Part shown: one piece after another, positions 11,212 through 61,652 of the stretch
How the letters are laid out: each line of letters begins with the position of its first letter
How positions within the stretch are numbered: position 1 is the first letter of the stretch
Source: an uncultured Candidatus Saccharibacteria bacterium
Lineage (GTDB): Bacteria > Patescibacteriota > Saccharimonadia > UBA4664 > CAZJNH01
Direction: 5' to 3'
Length of the DNA: 64,000 nucleotides
Assembly (NCBI GenBank): GCA_964547425.1
Contig: CAZJNH010000002.1
Location: 1,028 to 65,027, forward strand
Made by a program: the position numbers and the translations under genes
Notes under the pieces: generated by a model
What the model was told of the DNA's origin: nothing
Databases searched by the model: none
What the model saw: only the letters and a program-made list of their open reading frames with translations

Positions 11212-11970
11212 ATGCTTATCGATAGCCACGCCCATCTGCATTTTGACCAGTACCGCGACCAGCTCGATGATGTTTTAGAACGATCCAAAGTAGCAGGGGT
11301 GACCAAGATTGTTACCGTGGGTGTGGATGATACCGATAGCCAAGCGGCTGTCGAGCTAGCGGGCCAGCATAATTCTATTTATGCGTCGGTGGGGTTGCAT
11401 CCGCACGAAGCTAAACGGGGCCAGGCGGCGATTGATCGGGTAAAAGCTCTGGCAAAACAACCGAAGGTTGTAGCGATCGGGGAGTGTGGGCTGGATTATT
11501 ACCGCAACCTGTCACCCAAGGATGAGCAGGAAATGGCCCTGCGCCAGCAAATCGAGCTGGCGGGATCTCTTGGGCTTCCAATAATTTTTCATGTCCGCGA
11601 CGCTTTTGCCGACTTCAAACGGATCGTTGCCGACTACCCAGAAGCTAAAGGCATCATTCACAGTTTTAGCGACTCGCCCGAAAACGCGGAGTGGCTAGTG
11701 GGGCGGGGCTTTCTAATCGGATTAAATGGCATTATGACTTTCACTAAGGACGAGGAGCAGTTACGGGCTGCCAAGACTATTCCTCTTGAAAACCTAGTCC
11801 TCGAAACCGATTGTCCATTTTTGTCGCCCGCGCCGAAACGGGGTCAGGTTAATGAACCAGCTAACATCGAGATCATCGCCCGTTTCCTGGCTAGTATCCG
11901 CGGCGAGTCATTCGAAGAGCTAGCCCGTCAAACCACCGCCAACGCCGAAATGCTACTTAAATTGATTTAG
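11212..11970 (+). CDS. tatD: TatD-family metal-dependent DNase/hydrolase
   Basis: N-terminal IDSHAHL motif and conserved His/Asp/Glu pattern of TatD. Confidence 0.85.
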   Translation: MLIDSHAHLHFDQYRDQLDDVLERSKVAGVTKIVTVGVDDTDSQAAVELAGQHNSIYASVGLHPHEAKRGQAAIDRVKALAKQPKVVAIGECGLDYYRNLSPKDEQEMALRQQIELAGSLGLPIIFHVRDAFADFKRIVADYPEAKGIIHSFSDSPENAEWLVGRGFLIGLNGIMTFTKDEEQLRAAKTIPLENLVLETDCPFLSPAPKRGQVNEPANIEIIARFLASIRGESFEELARQTTANAEMLLKLI

Positions 11971-11990
11971 GGGTTGAACCCCTAATATGG
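11964..11990. repeat. REP-like palindrome (family 1, core GGGGTTGAACCCC), left flank of the transposase
   Basis: ATTTAGGGGTTGAACCCCTAATA directly after the tatD stop; recurs at 12521..12549. Confidence 0.8.
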
Positions 11991-12002: not shown

Positions 12003-12557
12003 ATGCCAAGCAAGAATGTGATTCGAGAATTAGCAGCGGGAGAGTATTATCATGTCTTTAATAGGGGTATAGATAAATCTCTCGTCTTTAAAACGAAGAA
12101 TGATTACGGGGTATTTCTTTATTATCTAGAGTCTTTTCTTTCGGACCCTTCGCGCGTTAGCTCATCGAATCCCTACCGAACCAACTATCAAGGCCGGGTA
12201 AGGCTGGTTTGTTATTGCTTAATGCCTAATCATTATCATCTTTTCGTACAGCAAGTAGATGATAATGGCTTACCTGATTTCATGAGGGCATTGGCTAACG
12301 CCTATACGCAATATTTCAATACTACTTACGACAGGGTTGGCCCAGTATTCCAAGGTCGATATAAGGCAGTCCGCATACAGAACGACCCGCACTTTAAAGG
12401 TATTAGTCGGTATATTCACGAGAATCCCAAAGACTTATGTTCTGACTTCCGGAATTATCCATACTCAAGCTATAAGTTTTTTTCTGATAAAGCGCCGGAT
12501 TGGATTCATTTTGGAGAGCTAAAATTAGGGGTTGAACCCCTAATAAAGGCTTTATGA
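12003..12557 (+). CDS. tnpA: IS200/IS605-family Y1 (HuH) transposase-like protein, REP-associated tyrosine transposase (RAYT)-like
   Basis: HuH motif MPNHYHLFVQ and a catalytic Tyr region (GRYKAV), about 184 aa, flanked by direct copies of a palindromic repeat; its C-terminal residues are encoded by the repeat itself. Confidence 0.8.
   Translation: MPSKNVIRELAAGEYYHVFNRGIDKSLVFKTKNDYGVFLYYLESFLSDPSRVSSSNPYRTNYQGRVRLVCYCLMPNHYHLFVQQVDDNGLPDFMRALANAYTQYFNTTYDRVGPVFQGRYKAVRIQNDPHFKGISRYIHENPKDLCSDFRNYPYSSYKFFSDKAPDWIHFGELKLGVEPLIKAL
12521..12549. repeat. REP-like palindrome (family 1), right flank of the transposase
   Basis: AAAATTAGGGGTTGAACCCCTAATAAAGG; direct repeat of the 11964..11990 element. 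Confidence 0.8.
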
Positions 12558-18633: not shown

Positions 18634-18700
18634 CACCTTGTACTTTTCTAACCTGAAAAGGGTTACACCCTTAACAGATAAGCAAATTACATGTTTTTTG
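18634..18700. repeat. REP-like palindromic element, family 2 (copy A)
   Basis: CCTTGTACTTTTCTAACCTGAAAAGGGTTACACCCTTAACAGATAAGCAAATTACATGTTTTTT; one of five copies in the window. Confidence 0.8.
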
Positions 18701-26388: not shown

Positions 26389-26403
26389 TCTAGGCTTGGT
26401 TAT

Positions 26404-26479
26404 GGGGCATTAGCTCAGTTGGTAGAGCGCTACATTCGCATTGTAGAGGCCGCCGGTTCGAATCCGGCATGCTCCACCA
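26404..26479 (+). tRNA. tRNA-Ala (anticodon CGC)
   Basis: Cloverleaf folded by hand: acceptor GGGGCAT/ATGCTCC with the G3:U70 pair, anticodon loop TTCGCAT, T-loop TTCGAAT, encoded CCA. Confidence 0.85.
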
Positions 26480-26488
26480 GGACTTATT

Positions 26489-27251: not shown

Positions 27252-27701
27252 ATGGCTAAAACGTTTCTGCGCATTCGCAAAAAATATAATCAGGCCACGT
27301 TTTATCTAACGGCCGCGGCCGCTATGGCGGTTGGCACCTACTTGTTGCTCCACGCTCTGGCTTCCGCGCCGGTTATGGCCCATTTTGTTCCTCCGGACCA
27401 CGGCACCGCTTTTAATAAAGGTGAGTTTGTCGTGTTTGGGGTCACCGACCACACCCAGCAGGGCATTACCTTTACCGACAACGCGCCATGGGAGGTGGTC
27501 GACGAGCATAACAATCAGGTCTTTAAACCCGTCGCGGTCAAGGATTTCAGCGCGTTGTCTGTCCAAGAGAATCGGTACTGGAGCTGGGATCAAGACGACC
27601 AAGGTGGCCATCAGGTTTCGTCCGGTAAATACACCATCATTATCAATTACCAAGTTGACCACAAGGCCGCCGAGGCCAAGCTAGATCTCACAATCAGATA
27701 A
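27252..27701 (+). CDS. small secreted protein of unknown function
   Basis: 149 aa with a signal anchor; no motif recognised. Confidence 0.4.
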   Translation: MAKTFLRIRKKYNQATFYLTAAAAMAVGTYLLLHALASAPVMAHFVPPDHGTAFNKGEFVVFGVTDHTQQGITFTDNAPWEVVDEHNNQVFKPVAVKDFSALSVQENRYWSWDQDDQGGHQVSSGKYTIIINYQVDHKAAEAKLDLTIR

Positions 27702-27708
27702 ATAAATC

Positions 27709-27766
27709 CTGGTGGAGATAAGGAGGCTCGAACTCCTGACCTGTCGCCTGCGGCGACCGCTCTACC
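27709..27766 (-). pseudogene. 3' portion of a tRNA-Ala-like gene (D-loop remnant, 6-bp/3-nt hairpin, AGGTC, T-arm, acceptor 3' strand, CCA)
   Basis: Minus-strand sequence GGTAGAGCGGTCGCCGCAGGCGACAGGTCAGGAGTTCGAGCCTCCTTATCTCCACCA; its acceptor 3' strand pairs perfectly, including G3:U70, with the 5' piece at 28101..28145. Confidence 0.6.
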
Positions 27767-27782
27767 TTCTAGGAATTAGTCC

Positions 27783-28094
<312 letters not shown>

Positions 28095-28100
28095 GACTTT

Positions 28101-28145
28101 GACCTGTCGCCGATGGCGACCGCTCTACCAACTGAGCTATATCCC
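28101..28145 (-). pseudogene. 5' portion of a tRNA-Ala-like gene (acceptor 5' strand, D-arm, then a 6-bp/3-nt hairpin in place of the anticodon arm)
   Basis: Minus-strand sequence GGGGATATAGCTCAGTTGGTAGAGCGGTCGCCATCGGCGACAGGTC; shares a 29-nt segment with the 3' piece at 27738..27766. Confidence 0.6.
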
Positions 28146-28164
28146 CTTGAACCAAAAGATATTA

Positions 28165-41519: not shown

Positions 41520-42137
41520 GTGCGACGGGTGTGGGTATCGTTGCTTCTGGCGGCTTGCTTTTCGCTCGTGATTGAGGCTCCGGCGGGCTCGGAATCGGTG
41601 CAAGCTGTGGTTTCGCATCGGATTGTGGTGCCTCGATCTGCCCTGCTGGGGTATTTGCCGCTCCGGCCGCCGGATCCGATCTACAGCCATTTGCCGGCGC
41701 AAAGGGCCGGAAAGATGGTAGTTGTAGATATCTCGGACTTCATGCTCTATGAGCTGGTGGACGGGATTATCGTCAAACGGCTACAAATTTCGACCGGTTT
41801 CGGCGGTCCATTCCGTGAACTTCACCGCCTGCCGGGCGGCCAATACGAATTGGAAACCGGCCACGCCGACACGCACAGAGGGGCGTTTGAGGCGCACCGC
41901 CAAAAAGTCGATGGCTACGACGGGGAGCTGCTGCATATGGGTCCAGGCGGGACCTACACCAGCAAACTCGGAGTGATGAGTTGGCCGGTTTGGTTTTACG
42001 GCACCATCGACGCCATTCACGGCGAGGATGTACCGAACTACAACGCCTCGCATGGATGTGTTCGGATCCCCTGGCAAGAAGCTAAGCCGTTCTACGATTG
42101 GACGCCCGACGGGACGCCGATCGTCGTTCAGCAGTAA
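41520..42137 (+). CDS. L,D-transpeptidase (YkuD domain)
   Basis: Catalytic motif SHGCVRIP; GTG start at 41520 preceded by AAGGAGAG; signal peptide. Confidence 0.7.
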   Translation: MRRVWVSLLLAACFSLVIEAPAGSESVQAVVSHRIVVPRSALLGYLPLRPPDPIYSHLPAQRAGKMVVVDISDFMLYELVDGIIVKRLQISTGFGGPFRELHRLPGGQYELETGHADTHRGAFEAHRQKVDGYDGELLHMGPGGTYTSKLGVMSWPVWFYGTIDAIHGEDVPNYNASHGCVRIPWQEAKPFYDWTPDGTPIVVQQ

Positions 42138-42201
42138 GGTTTTCGAAGTCCCCGGTCAAAAGATGGCCGGGGACTTTAATATTGAGTGCTAGAATTAAAA
42201 C

Positions 42202-42789
<588 letters not shown>

Positions 42790-42806
42790 CTCAAATTATT
42801 GCTAAA

Positions 42807-42870
42807 ACATGTATTTTTCTAACCTGTTAAGGGTGTAACCCTTAACAGGTTAGTCGATTACAAGGTTTCC
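42807..42870. repeat. REP-like palindromic element, family 2 (copy B), contains the perfect 16-bp-stem hairpin CTAACCTGTTAAGGGT-GTA-ACCCTTAACAGGTTAG
   Basis: Read directly; the stop codon of the adjacent transposase lies inside the hairpin. Confidence 0.85.
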
Positions 42871-43461
42871 TAGTAACGGTTTAGAGTCTCGGATTAAACC
42901 CTCATGGAAGTCAGAAAACTCCATAGAGCCTGAAAACAGGCTAAGAACATCGATATGCTTCAACCACCGTGGAGCATGTCCTAACACGAAATAACGGTAG
43001 CTTGAATACGGGTATCGCAGGTAGCTCAACCTGATAGTTTGGGGATTTAGATGGATGTAACGGGTCAAGTGCATAATTTGCTCGTCTGATTCTGCGAGAA
43101 CCGCTTTATATGTCCCCTGAAACAAACTCCCGACGCGGTTGTGCCTCGTATTGAAATACATTGCATATTTGGTCCCAATAGATTTCATTAACTTCGTAAT
43201 ACCTTCAGCCGTGTTTTGCCTGACGAGCAAATGAAAATGATTGGGCATCAAGCAATACGCTAAAAGATCGATTTCTTTACTTAGTTCCGGCAAGTTGTCG
43301 GGCCGTTTTTTTTGATCCGGGTCCAAATAAAGTTTCAGATAGCCTAGAAACACTCGATAATCTTGGTCGTCCATGAAGATATCACGTTTTTCAACACCTC
43401 GGTTGTAGATGTGGTAGTACCCGCCCTCTTGATATTGCTTGATAGTATTACGGCTTGGCAT
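42850..43461 (-). CDS. tnpA: IS200/IS605-family Y1 (HuH) transposase-like protein (RAYT-like), second paralog
   Basis: HuH motif MPNHFHLLVRQ, GTYKAV Tyr region; about 55% identical to the 12003..12557 product; flanked by family-2 REP copies B and C. Confidence 0.8.
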   Translation of the reverse strand: MPSRNTIKQYQEGGYYHIYNRGVEKRDIFMDDQDYRVFLGYLKLYLDPDQKKRPDNLPELSKEIDLLAYCLMPNHFHLLVRQNTAEGITKLMKSIGTKYAMYFNTRHNRVGSLFQGTYKAVLAESDEQIMHLTRYIHLNPQTIRLSYLRYPYSSYRYFVLGHAPRWLKHIDVLSLFSGSMEFSDFHEGLIRDSKPLLGNLVID

Positions 43462-43476
43462 CGGTGTATCAATATA

Positions 43477-43546
43477 ACGTGTATTTTCCTAACCTGTAAA
43501 GGGTTACACCCTTAACAGATGGGTGAAATACAAGGTTAGGTTTTGT
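43477..43546. repeat. REP-like palindromic element, family 2 (copy C)
   Basis: AACGTGTATTTTCCTAACCTGTAAAGGGTTACACCCTTAACAGATGGGTGAAATACAAGGTTAGG. Confidence 0.85.
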
Positions 43547-43853
43547 GGCTTTGGTAAAGCCCAATTAGGGCACCAAAAATTACTGAAAAAGCGAAGTAAG
43601 GGATAAGGCTGGGGAGATAGGTGATGCTGCCGGCGTAGCCCTTGTCGGTTAGGATTTTGCCTAGCTCAATTAGCCGTAGAGGGCCAAGCCGAACGGTGAC
43701 GACGAGTGAATCCGCGTTTATGAAGCGGCGCGCGTACCAAAGAGTTAGCCCAAGCAGCAACATTGATGCAGCGATAAGTGCTTTGCCGGTCCAGCTGGCA
43801 ACTTGGTTTTGGGATTTAGTACGGTCTAACATGCCTTGGATTCCTCCAAACAA
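43536..43853 (-). CDS. small membrane protein (two TM)
   Basis: 105 aa, hydrophobic helices; no family recognised; the start may be internal. Confidence 0.35.
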   Translation of the reverse strand: MFGGIQGMLDRTKSQNQVASWTGKALIAASMLLLGLTLWYARRFINADSLVVTVRLGPLRLIELGKILTDKGYAGSITYLPSLIPYFAFSVIFGALIGLYQSHKT

Positions 43854-45156
43854 AATTATTTCTGATCCGCTCGATTAAAAAACAAAGCCCAAATAGGGTC
43901 ACAGCGAGAACTGCATACCCTAGCGTGGTCTGCTGCGGCGCTAAAACGGAGGATAATTTTGGTAGCCCGATCAGTAACGACACGCACAAGCTAGCGCTTA
44001 ATAATTGCCCCGACACGTCGCGCCCGCCGGTGACCAGGGACTCCGAAACCGCCAGACCAACCGCTGAGCTAAACAACATCAAGACCACAAACTTCATACC
44101 GATAAATCCGTCGTTGGACAAAGCGATCACGGCAAATCCGATTGGTGCTGTGGCAAGCATTGATAGTAGGGTGACTGTAAGCAATTGTGTCCGCATAAAT
44201 CGGACAACGCCGTAGAGCCCGGTGATTTCCGGCGGTTTAAATTTTTTAACGGCTCCTCTTGCGTCCGTCGCGAACGCACTGGCAAGTACCGCCGCGACTA
44301 TCAAGAAGACTCCGCCATCACCGACAGCGGTTTGATGATATAACGCGGATATGGCGACCAAACTACTTAGCGCGATCGTTACCGCAAAAGCCCCGGCGAT
44401 GCGCCGATGACGTAACAGTTTCGCGAAGTACCAGTGTCGATTCGAGCTATAAGATAACGTTTTTGTTTGCAGGTTTTGCTCCTGCTGGAGGCGCTCGGTT
44501 AAGCCATAAACGCTAATTACTAACCACACAACCGGAATTACCAAGATTAAGGCTGCCGCGGAGTACCAGGCCAAGCTTGGCTGCCCTTCGAAATAAGCGA
44601 TGATTATCTTTTTTAACAACAAAATCTCATCTGCCGCGATTAAGCCCGCCAAACCAAGCCGTAATGCCAACTTCGAACTAGGTTGGTAACTAGCAAGCCC
44701 AAACCCTGAAATGAGTCCGATCCCGACAGCGCCGACTACTTGTCCGGTAGGTAGGCCGAGATTAGCCACAACTAGCCAGAGAGGCTGAATAATCAGGACC
44801 AGAAGCAAACAGCCAAGAATAATTCCAGGGGCGTTAATGACTAGCCATCGCCGCACCGGGCCAATCGGTAGCGCAACCATCAACCGTGCTAAAGCTGACC
44901 GGCTAGGCAGAATGGCTTGGCCCATCAGCAAGCTTATTCCCGCCAGCAGCTGCACGCCCACGGTGATCACCACTAGCCACCACCATTTCGGCAGGCCGGG
45001 ATACAGCGGCAGCTGACGCAGAGCCGGCACCATCAAGCCGGTGAAAGCTAGGAGCAACGCCACTAATGCCACTAACCGAACCCTGGCTTTGCGCAGCAAT
45101 GGCCCTTTATCCCGCCCGAACGTCGTCACCAAACCAAGTTTAGTAAATTCAAACAC
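43816..45156 (-). CDS. polytopic membrane permease, probably the ABC transporter transmembrane subunit
   Basis: 446 aa with 10 or more predicted TM helices; start overlaps the upstream ATPase gene. Confidence 0.5.
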   Translation of the reverse strand: MFEFTKLGLVTTFGRDKGPLLRKARVRLVALVALLLAFTGLMVPALRQLPLYPGLPKWWWLVVITVGVQLLAGISLLMGQAILPSRSALARLMVALPIGPVRRWLVINAPGIILGCLLLVLIIQPLWLVVANLGLPTGQVVGAVGIGLISGFGLASYQPSSKLALRLGLAGLIAADEILLLKKIIIAYFEGQPSLAWYSAAALILVIPVVWLVISVYGLTERLQQEQNLQTKTLSYSSNRHWYFAKLLRHRRIAGAFAVTIALSSLVAISALYHQTAVGDGGVFLIVAAVLASAFATDARGAVKKFKPPEITGLYGVVRFMRTQLLTVTLLSMLATAPIGFAVIALSNDGFIGMKFVVLMLFSSAVGLAVSESLVTGGRDVSGQLLSASLCVSLLIGLPKLSSVLAPQQTTLGYAVLAVTLFGLCFLIERIRNNFVWRNPRHVRPY

Positions 45157-49401: not shown

Positions 49402-49668
49402 ATGAGCACGTTTTGGAGTAAATTCTGGCGCGACAAGCATGGCAATGTAGCGGTATGGCAAACGCCCAATATACCGCTGATTGGCTGGGCGGCCTGTATT
49501 GTGCTGTTGGTAGTTGTAAAATCCGGCGGTGCCCACCAATTGCTAACTTTCCTGCGGACTGCGTTTATCTTTACCTGGGCCTATCTGGAACTAACTGACG
49601 GCTCATGCTATTTCCGCCGTCTGCTAGGCGCAATCGTCCTGGCTTCGATCATAATTTCTCACTTCTAG
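49402..49668 (+). CDS. small membrane protein
   Basis: 88 aa, two or three hydrophobic helices. Confidence 0.3.
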   Translation: MSTFWSKFWRDKHGNVAVWQTPNIPLIGWAACIVLLVVVKSGGAHQLLTFLRTAFIFTWAYLELTDGSCYFRRLLGAIVLASIIISHF

Positions 49669-49707
49669 ACCGGCACCTTCGATTACGGTAAAATATCTCG
49701 GTTATGA

Positions 49708-49782
49708 TCGGGTGTGGCCAAGCGGTAAGGCGCCTGCCTCTGGAGCAGGAAATCGTAGGTTCGAATCCTACCACCCGAGCCA
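49708..49782 (+). tRNA. tRNA-Gln (anticodon CUG)
   Basis: Acceptor TCGGGTG/CACCCGA, anticodon stem CCTGC/GCAGG with loop CTCTGGA, T-loop TTCGAAT, encoded CCA. Confidence 0.8.
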
Positions 49783-49855
49783 AAGGTTATTATTGTAATC
49801 CCCTGAAGTTGACACGAATTTGTTTCAACACTAGAGTTTAAAAAGGATTATTCTT

Positions 49856-50668
49856 ATGGCAAAAGTCAATTTAGCAAAAAGCAGCAATCTTAATACGATT
49901 TTAAAGTTTGTAGCCTGGATTCTTTTTATTTTTGGCATGGTTGTTATTTTCGGAGTGAGTATTAATCCCGAAACCGCCCCGACCGTACCACCAAGCCCAC
50001 TAGATATTTTCTGGCCAGCGCTATTTATTCTGCTGCCTGTACTGTGGCTAAAAAAACTTAACGGTAATTCAAAAGGTAAGCGCTTCTTATCTTCCGACGG
50101 CGTGATCGTTACCCTCGCGGCGGTGTCGGTGGTATTGTCCGCATGGGGGGCATACCGCGGCGCCCAAAGTTACTTTGTCACCCAAGATGAGCTCATTTCG
50201 CAAAAATTTGCCGCCGTAAATGTTGTGTATCAAAAACGCTTCGACTTAGTTCCAAACGTAGCCGCCAGCGCGAAGGCACTCGCAACCCAAGAAAGAGCCG
50301 TAATAAATAGTATAACCAAAGCCAGATCCTTGTATCTCCGATCCAGAAGCACGAATGCCAAAGTTGGAGCTATTAACGATTTCAATAGAGCCCTTCTTTC
50401 GGTAAACGTGGAAAATTACCCTAACTTAAAAAGCGATGCCGGGTTCTTGAAGTTGATTCAAGTTTTAAGCGATACTGAAAACCAATTGGTGACGGCTCAG
50501 AATGACTATAACCAGCAAGTTACCGCATTGAATAGCCAGTCTAGAACTTTTCCCTACAACTTTCTAGCAAAGCATTTTATAGACCAACCGATCAAAAATC
50601 GTCTTGACCAAACAATCGATTTCCAGACTCAAAATTCTCAAGATCTGTTGAAGATACTTAAAGAATAA
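49856..50668 (+). CDS. LemA family protein with an extended N-terminal membrane region
   Basis: The C-terminal 170 aa match the LemA pattern (YQKRFDLVPNV .. NYPNLKSD..FLKLQ .. TENQL..A.NDYN..V..N). Confidence 0.6.
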   Translation: MAKVNLAKSSNLNTILKFVAWILFIFGMVVIFGVSINPETAPTVPPSPLDIFWPALFILLPVLWLKKLNGNSKGKRFLSSDGVIVTLAAVSVVLSAWGAYRGAQSYFVTQDELISQKFAAVNVVYQKRFDLVPNVAASAKALATQERAVINSITKARSLYLRSRSTNAKVGAINDFNRALLSVNVENYPNLKSDAGFLKLIQVLSDTENQLVTAQNDYNQQVTALNSQSRTFPYNFLAKHFIDQPIKNRLDQTIDFQTQNSQDLLKILKE

Positions 50669-50674
50669 CTGGAA

Positions 50675-51073
50675 TTACTCTTTGCCGGCTAGCATCAAGA
50701 CGATTAGCTTGGTGATACCCCAACCGACGAGGGCGTAGACGATCATACCGATGATCGTAGCCGGTTCGAGTACCGAGGTGGTTTCAACACCTTGCGAGAC
50801 CGTAGTATGAAAAATCCCCAAAAACGGCGCCAAAAGACCGCCGGTAATCGAGTAGATGAAGGACACAAAGCCGCTGTTCGGGTTGGCGCCTAACAGTTTA
50901 AATACCAGCCGAAACGCGAACAGGATTTCCAGGACTCCCAGAATGTAATACACCAGGTAGTAAGCCTGAAAAGTGCCTTTGTTTTCCTGTGATACCGGTG
51001 AACTAGAGGTCTTTTCGGTGACCTTTTCGCCGCCCGGGATCTTCTCTGTTGAAACTTCTTTTTTCTCTTCCAT
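50675..51073 (-). CDS. YggT-like small membrane protein
   Basis: Acidic/Ser-rich N-terminus then TM helices in a YggT-like arrangement. Confidence 0.35.
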   Translation of the reverse strand: MEEKKEVSTEKIPGGEKVTEKTSSSPVSQENKGTFQAYYLVYYILGVLEILFAFRLVFKLLGANPNSGFVSFIYSITGGLLAPFLGIFHTTVSQGVETTSVLEPATIIGMIVYALVGWGITKLIVLMLAGKE

Positions 51074-55259: not shown

Positions 55260-55466
55260 GTGGTTTATATATACAGAGTGAGTTGGCGGCATTTGATGAG
55301 AGACAAAAAAATCTTCGTTGCGAGAGTGATGGCTGTGCTTTTTTTTGGGTACCTGTTAGCGGCGCTGAAGTATCGAAGTAATTTTGTATTGTTTACGGGT
55401 TCATTGCTTGCGGCGATTATCCTTCATACCGGAATTATCCTCGCGCTACACCTGGAGAAGAAATGA
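55260..55466 (+). CDS. small membrane protein; the frame is open and hydrophobic for about 270 nt upstream without a canonical start
   Basis: GTG start at 55260; the same frame upstream from 54987 encodes further TM-like segments. Confidence 0.35.
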   Translation: MVYIYRVSWRHLMRDKKIFVARVMAVLFFGYLLAALKYRSNFVLFTGSLLAAIILHTGIILALHLEKK

Positions 55467-55813
55467 GGGCAGAACAGTTGTACGAATTGACGCTCAAATT
55501 GAAAGCCAAATATCCGGTAAGCACCGTGTTAGCAAAGGAGTTTGGATTGGAGCCGGGTGACGAGGCGGTTCTTGAGGTTGTTGATCTTCAGGATGAAAAG
55601 CACGGCCGTGTCAAAATCAATCTGGCGACCGAGTTCGCGCTCAAAGCCAACCCGCCTTTCGAGTGGAAGCTCGAGATCGACGACTTTCAGGGTGAACACT
55701 ATCTATGGTTGTCAGACGGCCGTTTCGTCCGCGCCGACCGCAAAACCTTCTTCGATGTTTCAAGTGATGAAATCACCAGGATCTCCAATCGCCTTATTTC
55801 CTTCGAGAAATAA
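55463..55813 (+). CDS. protein of unknown function, translationally coupled (ATGA) to the previous ORF
   Basis: 116 aa; no motif recognised. Confidence 0.35.
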   Translation: MRAEQLYELTLKLKAKYPVSTVLAKEFGLEPGDEAVLEVVDLQDEKHGRVKINLATEFALKANPPFEWKLEIDDFQGEHYLWLSDGRFVRADRKTFFDVSSDEITRISNRLISFEK

Positions 55814-55815
55814 GC

Positions 55816-55882
55816 AAACTTGTATTTCTCTAACCTGAAAAGGGTTACACCCTTAACAGATTGGGAAATTACAAGGTTTGGC
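55816..55882. repeat. REP-like palindromic element, family 2 (copy D)
   Basis: AAACTTGTATTTCTCTAACCTGAAAAGGGTTACACCCTTAACAGATTGGGAAATTACAAGGTTTGG. Confidence 0.85.
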
Positions 55883-56001
55883 TTGTCTGTTGCGAAGAGA
55901 TAAAAGTTATGTTATAGTTGGTTCAACTTACTGATGAATACGAGTCTGGTTGTCAATTATTCTCGCGGTTCATCCTAAGAGAATAATTAAACAAGGTATT
56001 C

Positions 56002-58343: not shown

Positions 58344-58559
58344 ATGCAACCAGACGAAAACAACACTCAAGTGCCCGGTACCGACCCTAACGCCACCCCG
58401 GCCGCTCCGGCCACCGATGGTGGAATGGGTGCTCCTGCTCTTGCCCCGGAAGCCCCTGCTGACGGTGGAATGGGCGCACCGGCTCCGGCCGATGGTGGAA
58501 TGGGCGCTCCTGCCCCGGCCCCAGAGGGAACCCCTCCGGCCGACGACCACCAAGTCTAA
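58344..58559 (+). CDS. acidic Pro/Ala-rich peptide with three DGGMGAP repeats
   Basis: RBS AGGAAAGGA; repeats visible in the DNA (GAYGGTGGAATGGGYGC x3); followed by a shared terminator. Confidence 0.45.
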   Translation: MQPDENNTQVPGTDPNATPAAPATDGGMGAPALAPEAPADGGMGAPAPADGGMGAPAPAPEGTPPADDHQV

Positions 58560-59945: not shown

Positions 59946-60356
59946 TTAGGCCACGGTCTGCCCAATCCGTACGGTCTTCATGATCGTGATAATCTTGACG
60001 GACTCGTACGGTAGGTTGAGCTTTCGCTCAACTCTTCGGCAGATATGCCGGTGGATCTGGAGCCGACGAGTGAGCGCGGCTTGGGATCGGGAGTTCTGGG
60101 TAGCCAACCCGATCTTGACGCCATCGAGCTCAATACTCGTTACCCAGCCGGTGTCGGTCAGGACGGTGACCTCGTAAAGGCGGTTTCGCCTTAGATCATC
60201 GCCTTTGAGAGCCTCGGCTCGCTCTTCGAACTGACGCTCATACCTCTCGGTCTGAACAATCATTCTTTCGATCCCCTCGGCGACCTGGCCACAATTCCAG
60301 CAATCTTCACCGAAGGTAGTTTCTGCTCCACAAACCGGACAGTCAACAGAGTACAT
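59946..60356 (-). CDS. N-terminal zinc-ribbon (CPVCG..CWNCG) protein of unknown function
   Basis: 136 aa; sits upstream of the 390-aa gene on the same strand. Confidence 0.4.
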   Translation of the reverse strand: MYSVDCPVCGAETTFGEDCWNCGQVAEGIERMIVQTERYERQFEERAEALKGDDLRRNRLYEVTVLTDTGWVTSIELDGVKIGLATQNSRSQAALTRRLQIHRHICRRVERKLNLPYESVKIITIMKTVRIGQTVA

Positions 60357-60457: not shown

Positions 60458-60528
60458 TCCAAACCTTGTATTTTCCCTATCTGTTAAGGGTGTAACCCTT
60501 TTCAGGTTAGAGAAATACATGTTTTTGG
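60458..60528. repeat. REP-like palindromic element, family 2 (copy E, inverse orientation relative to copy D)
   Basis: CCAAACCTTGTATTTTCCCTATCTGTTAAGGGTGTAACCCTTTTCAGGTTAGAGAAATACATGTTTTTGG. Confidence 0.85.
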
Positions 60529-60599: not shown

Positions 60600-61652
60600 A
60601 TGGGGGTGCGCAGACACAAGCGTAGACGCAGGTTGCGGTGGCTGATTCTGGCTGGACTGGCTCTACTGGGAGCAGCGCCGGCCGAGGCCGACTCACCGGT
60701 CTTCAATCAGAAGGTGTTGATGCCGGGGGTGAAGGTGTTTCAGTACAAATCTTCGGCGATAGCCCAACCAAACCTGGTGCACGTCGCCGAGGTGGATAAG
60801 AGCGCCCCGGTGGAGTGGAAGGTGGTTTCGCTTGGCATAAAGACCCCGGTCAGCGACCTCTGCCGTTTGAGTCATTGCCTGGTCGGGGCGAACGCGGGCT
60901 TTTTTAAGCCGAACGGACAGCCGGTACCTGGATCCAACTCTCAAGTCCAGCAGCTTCTGGGCCTGAGCGTTCCGGGTATTGGTCCGGGCACGGCGATCCT
61001 GCTGAAGGGCGGCAGATCCGCTAGCTTCGCGCCGGATGGCAGCTTCACCGACGTGAGGCATCCGCGTACCATCGTTTGCGATCGGCCAAACAGCCGGTTA
61101 CTGGTAACGGTCGATGGCCGCCAACCGGGCAGCCGCGGTATTAATCTGGACGAAGCCTCAGTTTTGGCCAAAAGCCTGGGCTGCGTCTGGGCGGTGAACT
61201 TCGACGGCGGCGGTTCGACAACGCTGGCCGTTCAGGGCGGCAAAGTCGTGAACCATCCGGTTGGCACGCTGGTGAAACGCGCTGGGGTCGTGATAGCGGT
61301 TGACGGAGTGCGGCGAGGCGATATCGTCTTGAAGCAGTACGTGCCGGTGCCGGTCGCGAACGCGCTGGTCGCCGTATCGAAACCGCAGTCGGCACAGGTC
61401 ATGGCCAAGACAGTAGCTAAGCCCGTGATGCCGGTAAACGCGATCCTTGGAGGCAAGGTTGCCGAGTCGGCTTTGCCTCAGCGCTTGAAGGCGCGGCCTG
61501 CCAGCCATCACGGTTCAGGGAGTCTGAAGTGGCTGGCAGCTATGAGCGTTTTGGCGGCCTACTTCAGTGGGCTGACAGTTCAGCGCCAGATCAAACGAAA
61601 AGCCGGTCCGCCATCAGGCGGATCGGCTTTCGCGTTTTTTAAGTTGTCATGA
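60600..61652 (+). CDS. secreted DUF2233/phosphodiester-glycosidase-like protein
   Basis: Arg-rich signal peptide; NAGFFKPNG and NFDGGGSTTL segments resemble the DUF2233 family; GC about 62%. Confidence 0.45.
   Translation: MGVRRHKRRRRLRWLILAGLALLGAAPAEADSPVFNQKVLMPGVKVFQYKSSAIAQPNLVHVAEVDKSAPVEWKVVSLGIKTPVSDLCRLSHCLVGANAGFFKPNGQPVPGSNSQVQQLLGLSVPGIGPGTAILLKGGRSASFAPDGSFTDVRHPRTIVCDRPNSRLLVTVDGRQPGSRGINLDEASVLAKSLGCVWAVNFDGGGSTTLAVQGGKVVNHPVGTLVKRAGVVIAVDGVRRGDIVLKQYVPVPVANALVAVSKPQSAQVMAKTVAKPVMPVNAILGGKVAESALPQRLKARPASHHGSGSLKWLAAMSVLAAYFSGLTVQRQIKRKAGPPSGGSAFAFFKLS

Follow-up and report, generated by a model that had tools for sequence, protein, structure and literature searches.

A class-2 Y1 transposase-like gene and its cognate palindromes, a probable REPtron/TIRtron-type unit in a Saccharibacteria-like chromosome

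We analysed a 64-kb stretch of DNA (the window; positions 1,028 to 65,027 of contig CAZJNH010000002.1, assembly GCA_964547425.1) from an uncultured Candidatus Saccharibacteria bacterium. The window contains a Y1 transposase-like gene, which we call RAYT-1, between two copies of a palindromic element, and it contains three solo copies of the element as well. (For the source genome, all counts of elements and of Y1 genes are for the 64-kb window only.) We believe, with a probability of roughly 70%, that RAYT-1 and its palindromes are a REPtron/TIRtron-type unit: a class-2 Y1 gene of the RAYT superfamily, for a putative single-strand DNA endonuclease/transposase, together with its cognate palindrome, in a Saccharibacteria-like chromosome. 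A literature search found no description of such systems in Saccharibacteria or in the candidate phyla radiation.

RAYT-1 is a Y1 transposase-like gene with a class-2 tyrosine motif

RAYT-1 (42850..43461, minus strand) encodes a protein of 203 amino acids. The open reading frame (ORF), a Pfam match, and the fold agree that it is a member of the HUH Y1 transposase superfamily with an intact predicted catalytic core, much as a first-pass annotation of this DNA had proposed from its HUH motif. The translated ORF contains the motifs YYHIYNRG, PNHFHLLV (HUH), LFQGTYK, RYIHLNP (with the tyrosine), and YPYSSY. The tyrosine motif has the class-2 form Y---NP (YIHLNP in RAYT-1). RAYT-1 matches Y1_Tnp (PF01797) with 42.7 bits (E = 7e-11; the cutoff is 23). 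This is the sole Pfam match, and Pfam finds no C-terminal helix-turn-helix (HTH) or Bac_DnaA_C-like domain in the protein. In an alignment of 28 homologues, the invariant residues are Y16, H17, N20, R21, G22, H75, H77, Q82, F114, Q115, Y135, I136, H137, N139, P140, S153, and S154.

The predicted structure of RAYT-1 is closest to a transposase that binds repetitive extragenic palindromes (REPs). An AlphaFold2 model, with the 28-sequence alignment as input, has a pLDDT of 89.8 and a pTM of 0.88. When we compared the model to the PDB with Foldseek, the best match was E. coli TnpA-REP with a REP hairpin (PDB:4ER8; E = 9.8e-7), with 169 aligned columns and a target-normalised TM score of 0.64. The TnpA structures of ISDra2, IS608, and IS200 rank below this, with E values of 4e-5 or worse and about 127 columns. 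A sequence-profile search of the PDB gave only a marginal match to ISDra2 (E = 0.0065); the fold search was needed to reveal the similarity to 4ER8.

The window has five copies of one palindrome

The two copies of the element that bracket RAYT-1 are B, beyond its 3' end, and C, before its start. Element B (42803..42866; 42803-42865 by nhmmer) contains a perfect 35-nt hairpin, CTAACCTGTTAAGGGT-GTA-ACCCTTAACAGGTTAG, at 42819..42853. (With its perfect 16-bp stem and 3-nt loop, B is nearly symmetric, and its strand is undefined.) The stop codon of RAYT-1 (TAA, 42852..42850 on the minus strand) does lie inside the hairpin, as had been noticed: it forms nucleotides 2-4 of the stem. Element C (43476..43542, plus strand; 43478-43539 by nhmmer) has an imperfect stem and the loop TAC. 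The three further copies are indeed away from transposase genes: solo 1 is at 18635..18697 on the plus strand (18636-18697 by nhmmer), solo 2 at 55817..55883 on the plus strand (55819-55881), and solo 3 at 60458..60523 on the minus strand (60459-60521).

An nhmmer profile finds exactly these five elements in the window, each of about 62-66 nt, with E values of 5e-20 to 6e-22. We saw no weaker or degenerate copies in the window, and nhmmer gave nothing further below an E of 0.1. The first-pass annotation gave a length of 65 bp; the palindrome reaches further, to about 75 nt (CCAAACCTTGTA...TACAAGGTTTGG). We also considered whether the conserved flanks AAAC...GTTT are a target-site motif outside the elements, and rejected this: they are a further extension of the palindrome.

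The perfect 16-bp stem, which had been taken as the core of the whole family, is present in B only. Its DNA fold has an energy of -18.7 kcal/mol (z = -7.4). The other four elements have a 6-bp core (AAGGGT/ACCCTT), outside of which come an internal loop (A.A/A.A) and outer arms that pair imperfectly. Their folds have energies between -7 and -13 kcal/mol (z between -1.8 and -4.6). Three elements (C, solo 1, and solo 2) have the loop triplet TAC, and the other two (B and solo 3) have GTA.

Could these repeats be due to chance, or be an artefact of assembly? We consider the probability of this to be negligible. The perfect hairpin of B had 0 matches in 100 shuffles. When up to 3 mismatches are allowed, the window has 10 matches to the 16-nt half-site, which are the two arms of each of five elements; shuffles have 0.46 matches on average and 3 at most. 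The five copies have independent substitutions and lie in different gene contexts. Also, a protein identical to RAYT-1 has been recorded for an NCBI contig with a length of 91,917 nt.

Outside of the window, we searched for the invariant 20-mer AAGGGTTACACCCTTAACAG in 185,579 species genomes, which do not include the source species, and found one unrelated match, in Christensenellaceae. Rfam reports three tRNAs in the window and no family that matches the elements.

Most copies are at the ends of genes

All five elements are extragenic, except that B overlaps the last 5 codons and the stop codon of RAYT-1. B fills the gap between the 3' end of RAYT-1 and sodA, which is convergent with it (stop at 42789). 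C sits 15-17 nt upstream of the ATG of RAYT-1 (43461) and immediately follows the stop codon of the upstream ORF (43536..43853, minus strand). A putative promoter, with a sigma-70-like -35 box (TTTACA) and -10 box (TATATT) at 43471..43500 on the minus strand, overlaps C and faces RAYT-1. (It is a consensus match only, at 10 of 12 positions.) Solo 1 starts about 5 nt past the stop codon (18631) of an ORF similar to alanyl-tRNA synthetase, and TTTTTT follows the element. Solo 2 starts about 4 nt past the stop codon of an ORF of 116 amino acids (55463..55813) and is upstream of a DEAD-box helicase-like ORF. Solo 3 lies in a 243-nt gap between divergent ORFs (59946..60356 on the minus strand and 60600..61652 on the plus strand). 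Overall, four of the five copies overlap a stop codon or begin 0-5 nt past one. We found no remnants of Y1 genes beside the solo copies in the window.

These positions would suit host regulatory hairpins, such as terminators or stabilisers of mRNA, that have no link to the Y1 protein. The run of thymines after solo 1 and the location of B between convergent genes would fit this explanation as well. But solo 3 lies between the starts of divergent genes, a terminator scan of 42000-44500 called no element, and none of the elements has an Rfam match. The homologues of RAYT-1, described below, also bear on this explanation.

Two observations concern the C terminus of RAYT-1 and the elements. First, in the homologue alignment, most of the C-termini are the peptide LGxLx[IL][DE], directly before the stop codon and the downstream hairpin. 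Second, the outer arm of element B supplies the last codons of RAYT-1 (NLVID), and each of the five elements has AACCTTGTA or a sequence very close to it. We considered whether the hairpin imposes the peptide and rejected this idea, because most loci have a matched element that begins no earlier than the stop codon.

RAYT-2 has a hairpin of its own

The window contains a second Y1 gene, RAYT-2 (12003..12557, plus strand), which encodes a protein of 184 amino acids that is 41% identical to RAYT-1. There are thus two Y1 paralogues in 31 kb. The statement that the gene at 12003 uses a different repeat was correct. Its hairpin, TTAGGGGTTGAACCCCTAATA, is present at 11967..11987 on the plus strand, 16 nt before the ATG, where it holds the stop codon of a TatD-like ORF. 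An identical copy is at 12525..12545, also on the plus strand, inside the last 11 codons of RAYT-2. The two copies are clearly direct repeats, and there are no solo copies of TTAGGGGTTGAACCCCTAATA in the window. The hairpin of RAYT-2 has a core (AGGGGT-TGA-ACCCCT) that is similar to that of the RAYT-1 element (AAGGGT-GTA-ACCCTT). The TGA of RAYT-2 overlaps the ATG of the next ORF, which is similar to cysteine desulfurases (ATGA). If RAYT-2 and one hairpin (558 nt) were excised, TatD would be followed by the remaining hairpin, 8 nt, and the ATG.

The orientation of B relative to C

The first-pass annotation described B and C as direct copies. That they bracket RAYT-1 is real, but their relative orientation depends on how it is measured. 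The polarity of C is clear, because a profile of the three solos gives it 61.7 bits, versus 31.4 bits in the opposite orientation. For B, profiles that were built without it give 50-51 bits in the inverted orientation and 42-46 bits in the direct orientation; the values from the profile of the solos are 50.0 and 42.2 bits. The global identity of B to C is higher in the direct orientation (85% versus 78%), and Smith-Waterman alignment also favours direct. The loop triplet is flipped between B (GTA) and C (TAC). Because B is effectively symmetric and these measures disagree, the pair cannot be called either direct or inverted. The perfect stem of B and its flipped loop are probably the result of hairpin-templated (quasipalindrome) correction, in which one arm was changed to match the other exactly.

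Homologues of RAYT-1 have matched pairs of hairpins

We scored at least 7,995 homologues of RAYT-1. The few that have a name are assigned to Candidatus Saccharibacteria, Saccharimonadales, or the Patescibacteria group. When we searched 1.84 billion cluster representatives with a profile, we found 2,777 at E <= 1e-30 (these are clusters at 50% identity) and 20,515 at E <= 1e-10. Beyond the identical protein, the next relative of RAYT-1 is only 60% identical, and the clusters are found on 1-7 contigs. Distant homologues (at most 37% identity) are present in 16 of 72,556 plasmids and in 1 of 50,697 phage records.

A scan of metagenomes gave 80 homologue loci, of which 73 had enough flanking sequence for an alignment test. 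For each locus, we aligned the 130 nt before the ATG to the region from 60 nt before the stop codon to 100 nt after it. The median score was 42 when both sequences came from one locus and 16 when they came from different loci, and 84% of the own-locus pairs scored 30 or more, versus 0.9% of the cross-locus pairs (Mann-Whitney p = 4e-38). The median position of the hairpin centres is -40 relative to the ATG and +20 relative to the stop codon. Their consensus is CAAGGT-CNG-ACCTTG, and the outer stems vary from locus to locus; the common core is RRGGT-NNN-ACCYY.

We also found such hairpins around two plasmid-borne homologues, which serve as control loci. First, the plasmid of Rhodospirillum rubrum (NC_007641) has a homologue with the motifs NHIH, WQG, and YIELNP, which is annotated as "transposase". 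A perfect 19-nt inverted pair (1104-1122 and 1870-1888) with the hairpin GGGGT-CAG-ACCCC surrounds this gene. The centre of TTAAAAGGGGTCAGACCCC is 44 nt ahead of the ATG of the gene and that of GGGGTCTGACCCCTTTTAA is 11 nt past its stop codon, and the control hairpin carries GGGGTCAG. Second, a homologue from a Legionella plasmid (NHYH, FQG, YIVLNP, and an HTH tail) has a 26-nt inverted pair that contains AGGGTCAG. Both of these homologues fit the GGGGWSAS motif that was described for the flanking inverted repeats of TIRYT genes (PMC3733652). From the flanks of the R. rubrum and Legionella genes, it follows that GGGGWSAS is half of the stem, plus the loop, of the same small hairpin. The distances from the hairpins to the gene are the same in the plasmid homologues, in the Patescibacteria family, and in the window.

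Returning to the idea that the palindromes are purely regulatory: since the pairing is specific to the locus across the homologues, and since the same geometry is seen in Proteobacterial plasmids, we think that this explanation is very unlikely.

The orientation of the hairpin pair varies among the homologues. Of 75 loci, 37 have a direct pair and 17 have an inverted pair; the orientation is ambiguous in 14, and the other 7 have no pair. Solo copies near the homologues are uncommon, with about 2 per 100 kb of flanking sequence, and their density in the window is about 5 per 100 kb. These densities agree with the roughly 12 flanking 16-mers per replicon that were reported for Group 1 RAYTs (PMC5581495).

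Inverted doublets of REPs (REPINs) had been suggested as something to look for. There are none in the 64-kb window, but tight inverted doublets, each of which forms a larger palindrome such as CAAAAGGTCTGACCTTTCAAAGGTCAGACCTTTTG, flank several of the homologues (L020, L021, L023, L030, L044, L063, and L071). The doublets are REPIN-like, and the long palindrome in the window could derive from such a doublet.

Two of the metagenome loci, L063 (10001-12732) and L068 (5226-10720), have two Y1 paralogues within 2-4 kb, each with its own variant of the hairpin. Local duplication followed by divergence seems to be recurrent among these Y1 homologues. The paralogues are diverged: they are 79% identical in L063 and 61% identical in L068, as compared to 41% in the window. 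We saw no near-identical copies of a Y1 gene in the window, in the tandem pairs, or among the homologues that we scored.

Comparison to known systems

Y1 proteins are divided into class 1 (IS200, with Y---Q) and class 2 (RAYT-like, with Y---NP) (Quentin et al. 2018, PMC6006769). Within class 2, the motifs of subclass 2.1 are NH[YF]H, FQ, Y[IV]HLNP, and an SS tail (Table 1 of PMC6006769), and the motifs of subclass 2.2 are DHLH, WE, and YIHYNP. The Group 1 RAYTs of Bertels et al. 2017 are the equivalent of subclass 2.1, and the TIRYTs of Di Nocera et al. 2013 probably are as well (PMC6006769). The NHFH, LFQG, YIHLNP, and YPYSSY of RAYT-1 are the second signature that is listed for subclass 2.1 in that table. 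As judged from published motif signatures and the two control loci, RAYT-1 is a member of TnpA-Y1 subclass 2.1 (Group 1). By the same kind of evidence, RAYT-1 is probably a TIRYT.

RAYT-1 is like the TIRYTs in several ways besides its protein signature. It is bracketed by a matched pair of repeats, and TIRYT repeats may overlap the ends of the gene. (Among the TIRYT repeats, there are self-complementary ones, ones that overlap the ends of the gene, and ones that belong to families of moderate abundance; PMC3733652.) The common core RRGGT-NNN-ACCYY fits GGGGWSAS, as do the cores in the window (AAGGGT-GTA-ACCCTT and TAGGGGT-TGA-ACCCCTA), with the proviso that the first two positions are purines and not strictly G. 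The placement of the hairpins, at about -40 and at +10 to +20, is as in the R. rubrum plasmid homologue. The gene has a low copy number and diverged paralogues, and its repeat family is moderately abundant. There are also differences. The host here is a Saccharibacteria-like Patescibacterium whose genome is presumably about 1 Mb. RAYT-1 is shorter (203 versus a median of 238 amino acids) and, by Pfam, lacks the C-terminal HTH/DnaA_C domain. (Subgroup 2.1.2 is heterogeneous for the presence of this domain; PMC6006769.) The repeat is a long self-complementary element of about 62-75 nt, and the pairs around the homologues of RAYT-1 are more often direct than inverted.

The first-pass annotation described this locus as a REP/REPIN-RAYT arrangement. 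Part of the likeness to canonical REP-RAYT systems (YafM, 4ER8; Groups 2 and 3 of Pseudomonas) stands: RAYT-1 has the Y1 fold with a C-terminal extension, it lies between cognate palindromes, the two paralogues have separate repeat families, and solo copies are found outside of genes, at their 3' ends. But the protein motifs are different from those of subclass 2.2, the repeat density in the window is at the low end, and the window lacks doublets. The description also does not hold for the protein family score and the foot of the hairpin, which are among the points below.

Several observations weigh against our interpretation. First, RAYT-1 scores 41.5 bits against the NCBIfam equivalog for REP-associated transposases (NF047646, REP_Tyr_transpos), and so fails its cutoff of 80. 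Second, there is no GT[AG]G at the foot of the inner stem, which is CTAACCTG instead. Third, no REP-like sequences were found beside subclass 2.1 genes in a previous study (PMC6006769). Fourth, direct pairs, which are like the ends of IS200/IS605, are the most common arrangement among the homologues (37 of 75), and only 17 are inverted. Fifth, the RAYT-1 and RAYT-2 genes are the stretches of 600 nt with the lowest GC content in the window (43.0% and 40.5%, versus 52.0 +/- 3.7%); less than 1% of 600-nt windows are as low as either gene. Sixth, a relative (L082; contig CAYZIN010000001.1 of GCA_964478595.1) keeps the order blaC-YkuD-sodA (beta-lactamase-YkuD-sodA) with no Y1 gene after sodA, and there is none after sodA in another relative (L083) either. 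(These two relatives are too distant to set the boundary of an insertion; the nearest SodA is only 76% identical.) Finally, we saw no excision or insertion polymorphism.

The low GC content and the absence beside sodA suggest that the RAYT-1 gene was acquired or has moved, and a foreign or mobile origin is suggested for both of the Y1 genes. Given this and the presence of two paralogues in 31 kb, the earlier view of RAYT-1 as a domesticated single-copy gene is not supported.

How the elements might spread

By analogy to TnpA-REP and to the transposases of IS608 and ISDra2, RAYT-1 may bind the element when it is folded as a hairpin in single-stranded DNA, for instance on the lagging-strand template. 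It would then cleave and rejoin DNA near the foot of the hairpin, via a 5'-phosphotyrosine link. These reactions could allow the palindrome of about 62 nt, and possibly the whole unit of 740 bp, to move or multiply. The spread would have been to sites where it is tolerated, such as the ends of genes. The upstream copy overlaps the promoter-like site, which may allow RAYT-1 to regulate its own expression.

Alternatively, the 740-bp segment from C through the gene to B might be an autonomous insertion sequence (IS) like IS200, and the solo copies might be scars from the loss of the gene through recombination between the repeats on either side of it, or might resemble miniature inverted-repeat transposable elements. 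We consider this unlikely, yet several observations are in its favour. IS200 (subclass 1.1) is also a unit of about 0.7 kb with a single Y1 gene, and it has subterminal hairpins on both sides, often in the same orientation, the upstream one near the promoter and the ribosome-binding site. The hairpins are direct in about half of the homologue loci, as noted above, and are both identical and direct around RAYT-2, which is wedged exactly between the TatD-like stop codon and the next ATG, with its hairpin duplicated. The two Y1 genes are extreme outliers for GC content, and RAYT-1 lies at a break in synteny. Also, among the true RAYT groups, the one that most resembles an IS is Group 1, where duplicates amount to 6.3% (PMC5581495).

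On the other hand, RAYT-1 differs from IS200 transposases in its tyrosine motif (Y---NP and not Y---Q) and is about 50 amino acids longer. Its model is nearer to TnpA-REP than to the IS200-type TnpA, to which the structural match is weaker (E of about 1e-4 over 127 columns). An IS would be expected in multiple identical copies, and the closest pairs that we found are the diverged paralogues and a nearest relative at 60% identity. The solo copies have no Y1 remnants beside them. Finally, the solo copies are more alike than they are like B: the identity between solos 2 and 3 is 95% (in inverted orientation), and another pair of solos is 87% identical. Solos 2 and 3 are 88-91% identical to C and only 77-85% identical to B. 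Copying of the short element itself fits these data better than independent scars do.

Other features of the window

The best matches to SodA are 76% identical and are mostly from Saccharimonadales. Three SodA homologues (P0121, P0124, and P0134; 75-76% identical) are on contigs of 91,917, 91,876, and 91,830 nt in three assemblies. The similar lengths of these contigs could be a coincidence or could reflect conserved break points. The contig of L082 shares the beta-lactamase-YkuD-sodA order with the window.

A third patch of low GC content (about 43-44%) is at 49500-50900, beside a tRNA gene (49708-49779). Its ORFs (49856..50668 and 50675..51073) resemble membrane or secreted proteins and have no function by annotation; the patch may be an accessory islet. 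At 58414-58525, there is an in-frame tandem repeat of about 30-45 nt (CCGATGGTGGAATGGGTGCTCCTGC...) within a coding sequence. Clustered tRNA genes on the two strands account for long repeats, both inverted and direct (26396-26488 with 27774-27866, and 27701-28157). Rfam places tRNAs at 26404 and 27786, and these repeats are unrelated to the elements.

Implications

For the window itself, the value of this finding is mostly in annotation: five palindromes and two "transposase" genes belong together. The survey of hairpins also leads to a simple prediction of the substrate of the RAYT-1 enzyme. More broadly, the TIR motif GGGGWSAS can be understood as the half-stem and loop of a hairpin that lies at conserved distances from the start and the stop of the gene. 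In the branch that includes RAYT-1, genes as a rule have cognate hairpins (84% of 73 loci), which qualifies the statement that subclass 2.1 genes lack REP-like structures (PMC6006769).

If our interpretation is correct, then the arrangement of a RAYT or TIRYT with its cognate palindrome extends to Saccharibacteria-like Patescibacteria, which have tiny genomes. Non-IS Y1 genes were reported to favour large genomes. A bolder proposal, which we regard as improbable, is that the Patescibacteria contain a very large and undescribed radiation of RAYT-like Y1 genes, each with a private pair of hairpins at set distances from the gene, that these hairpins seed small families of palindromes at the 3' ends of genes, and that the module serves the host. 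If so, then the gene and its hairpins would be kept in genomes of about 1 Mb because they benefit the host, in termination, regulation, or the processing of single-stranded DNA, and not as parasites.

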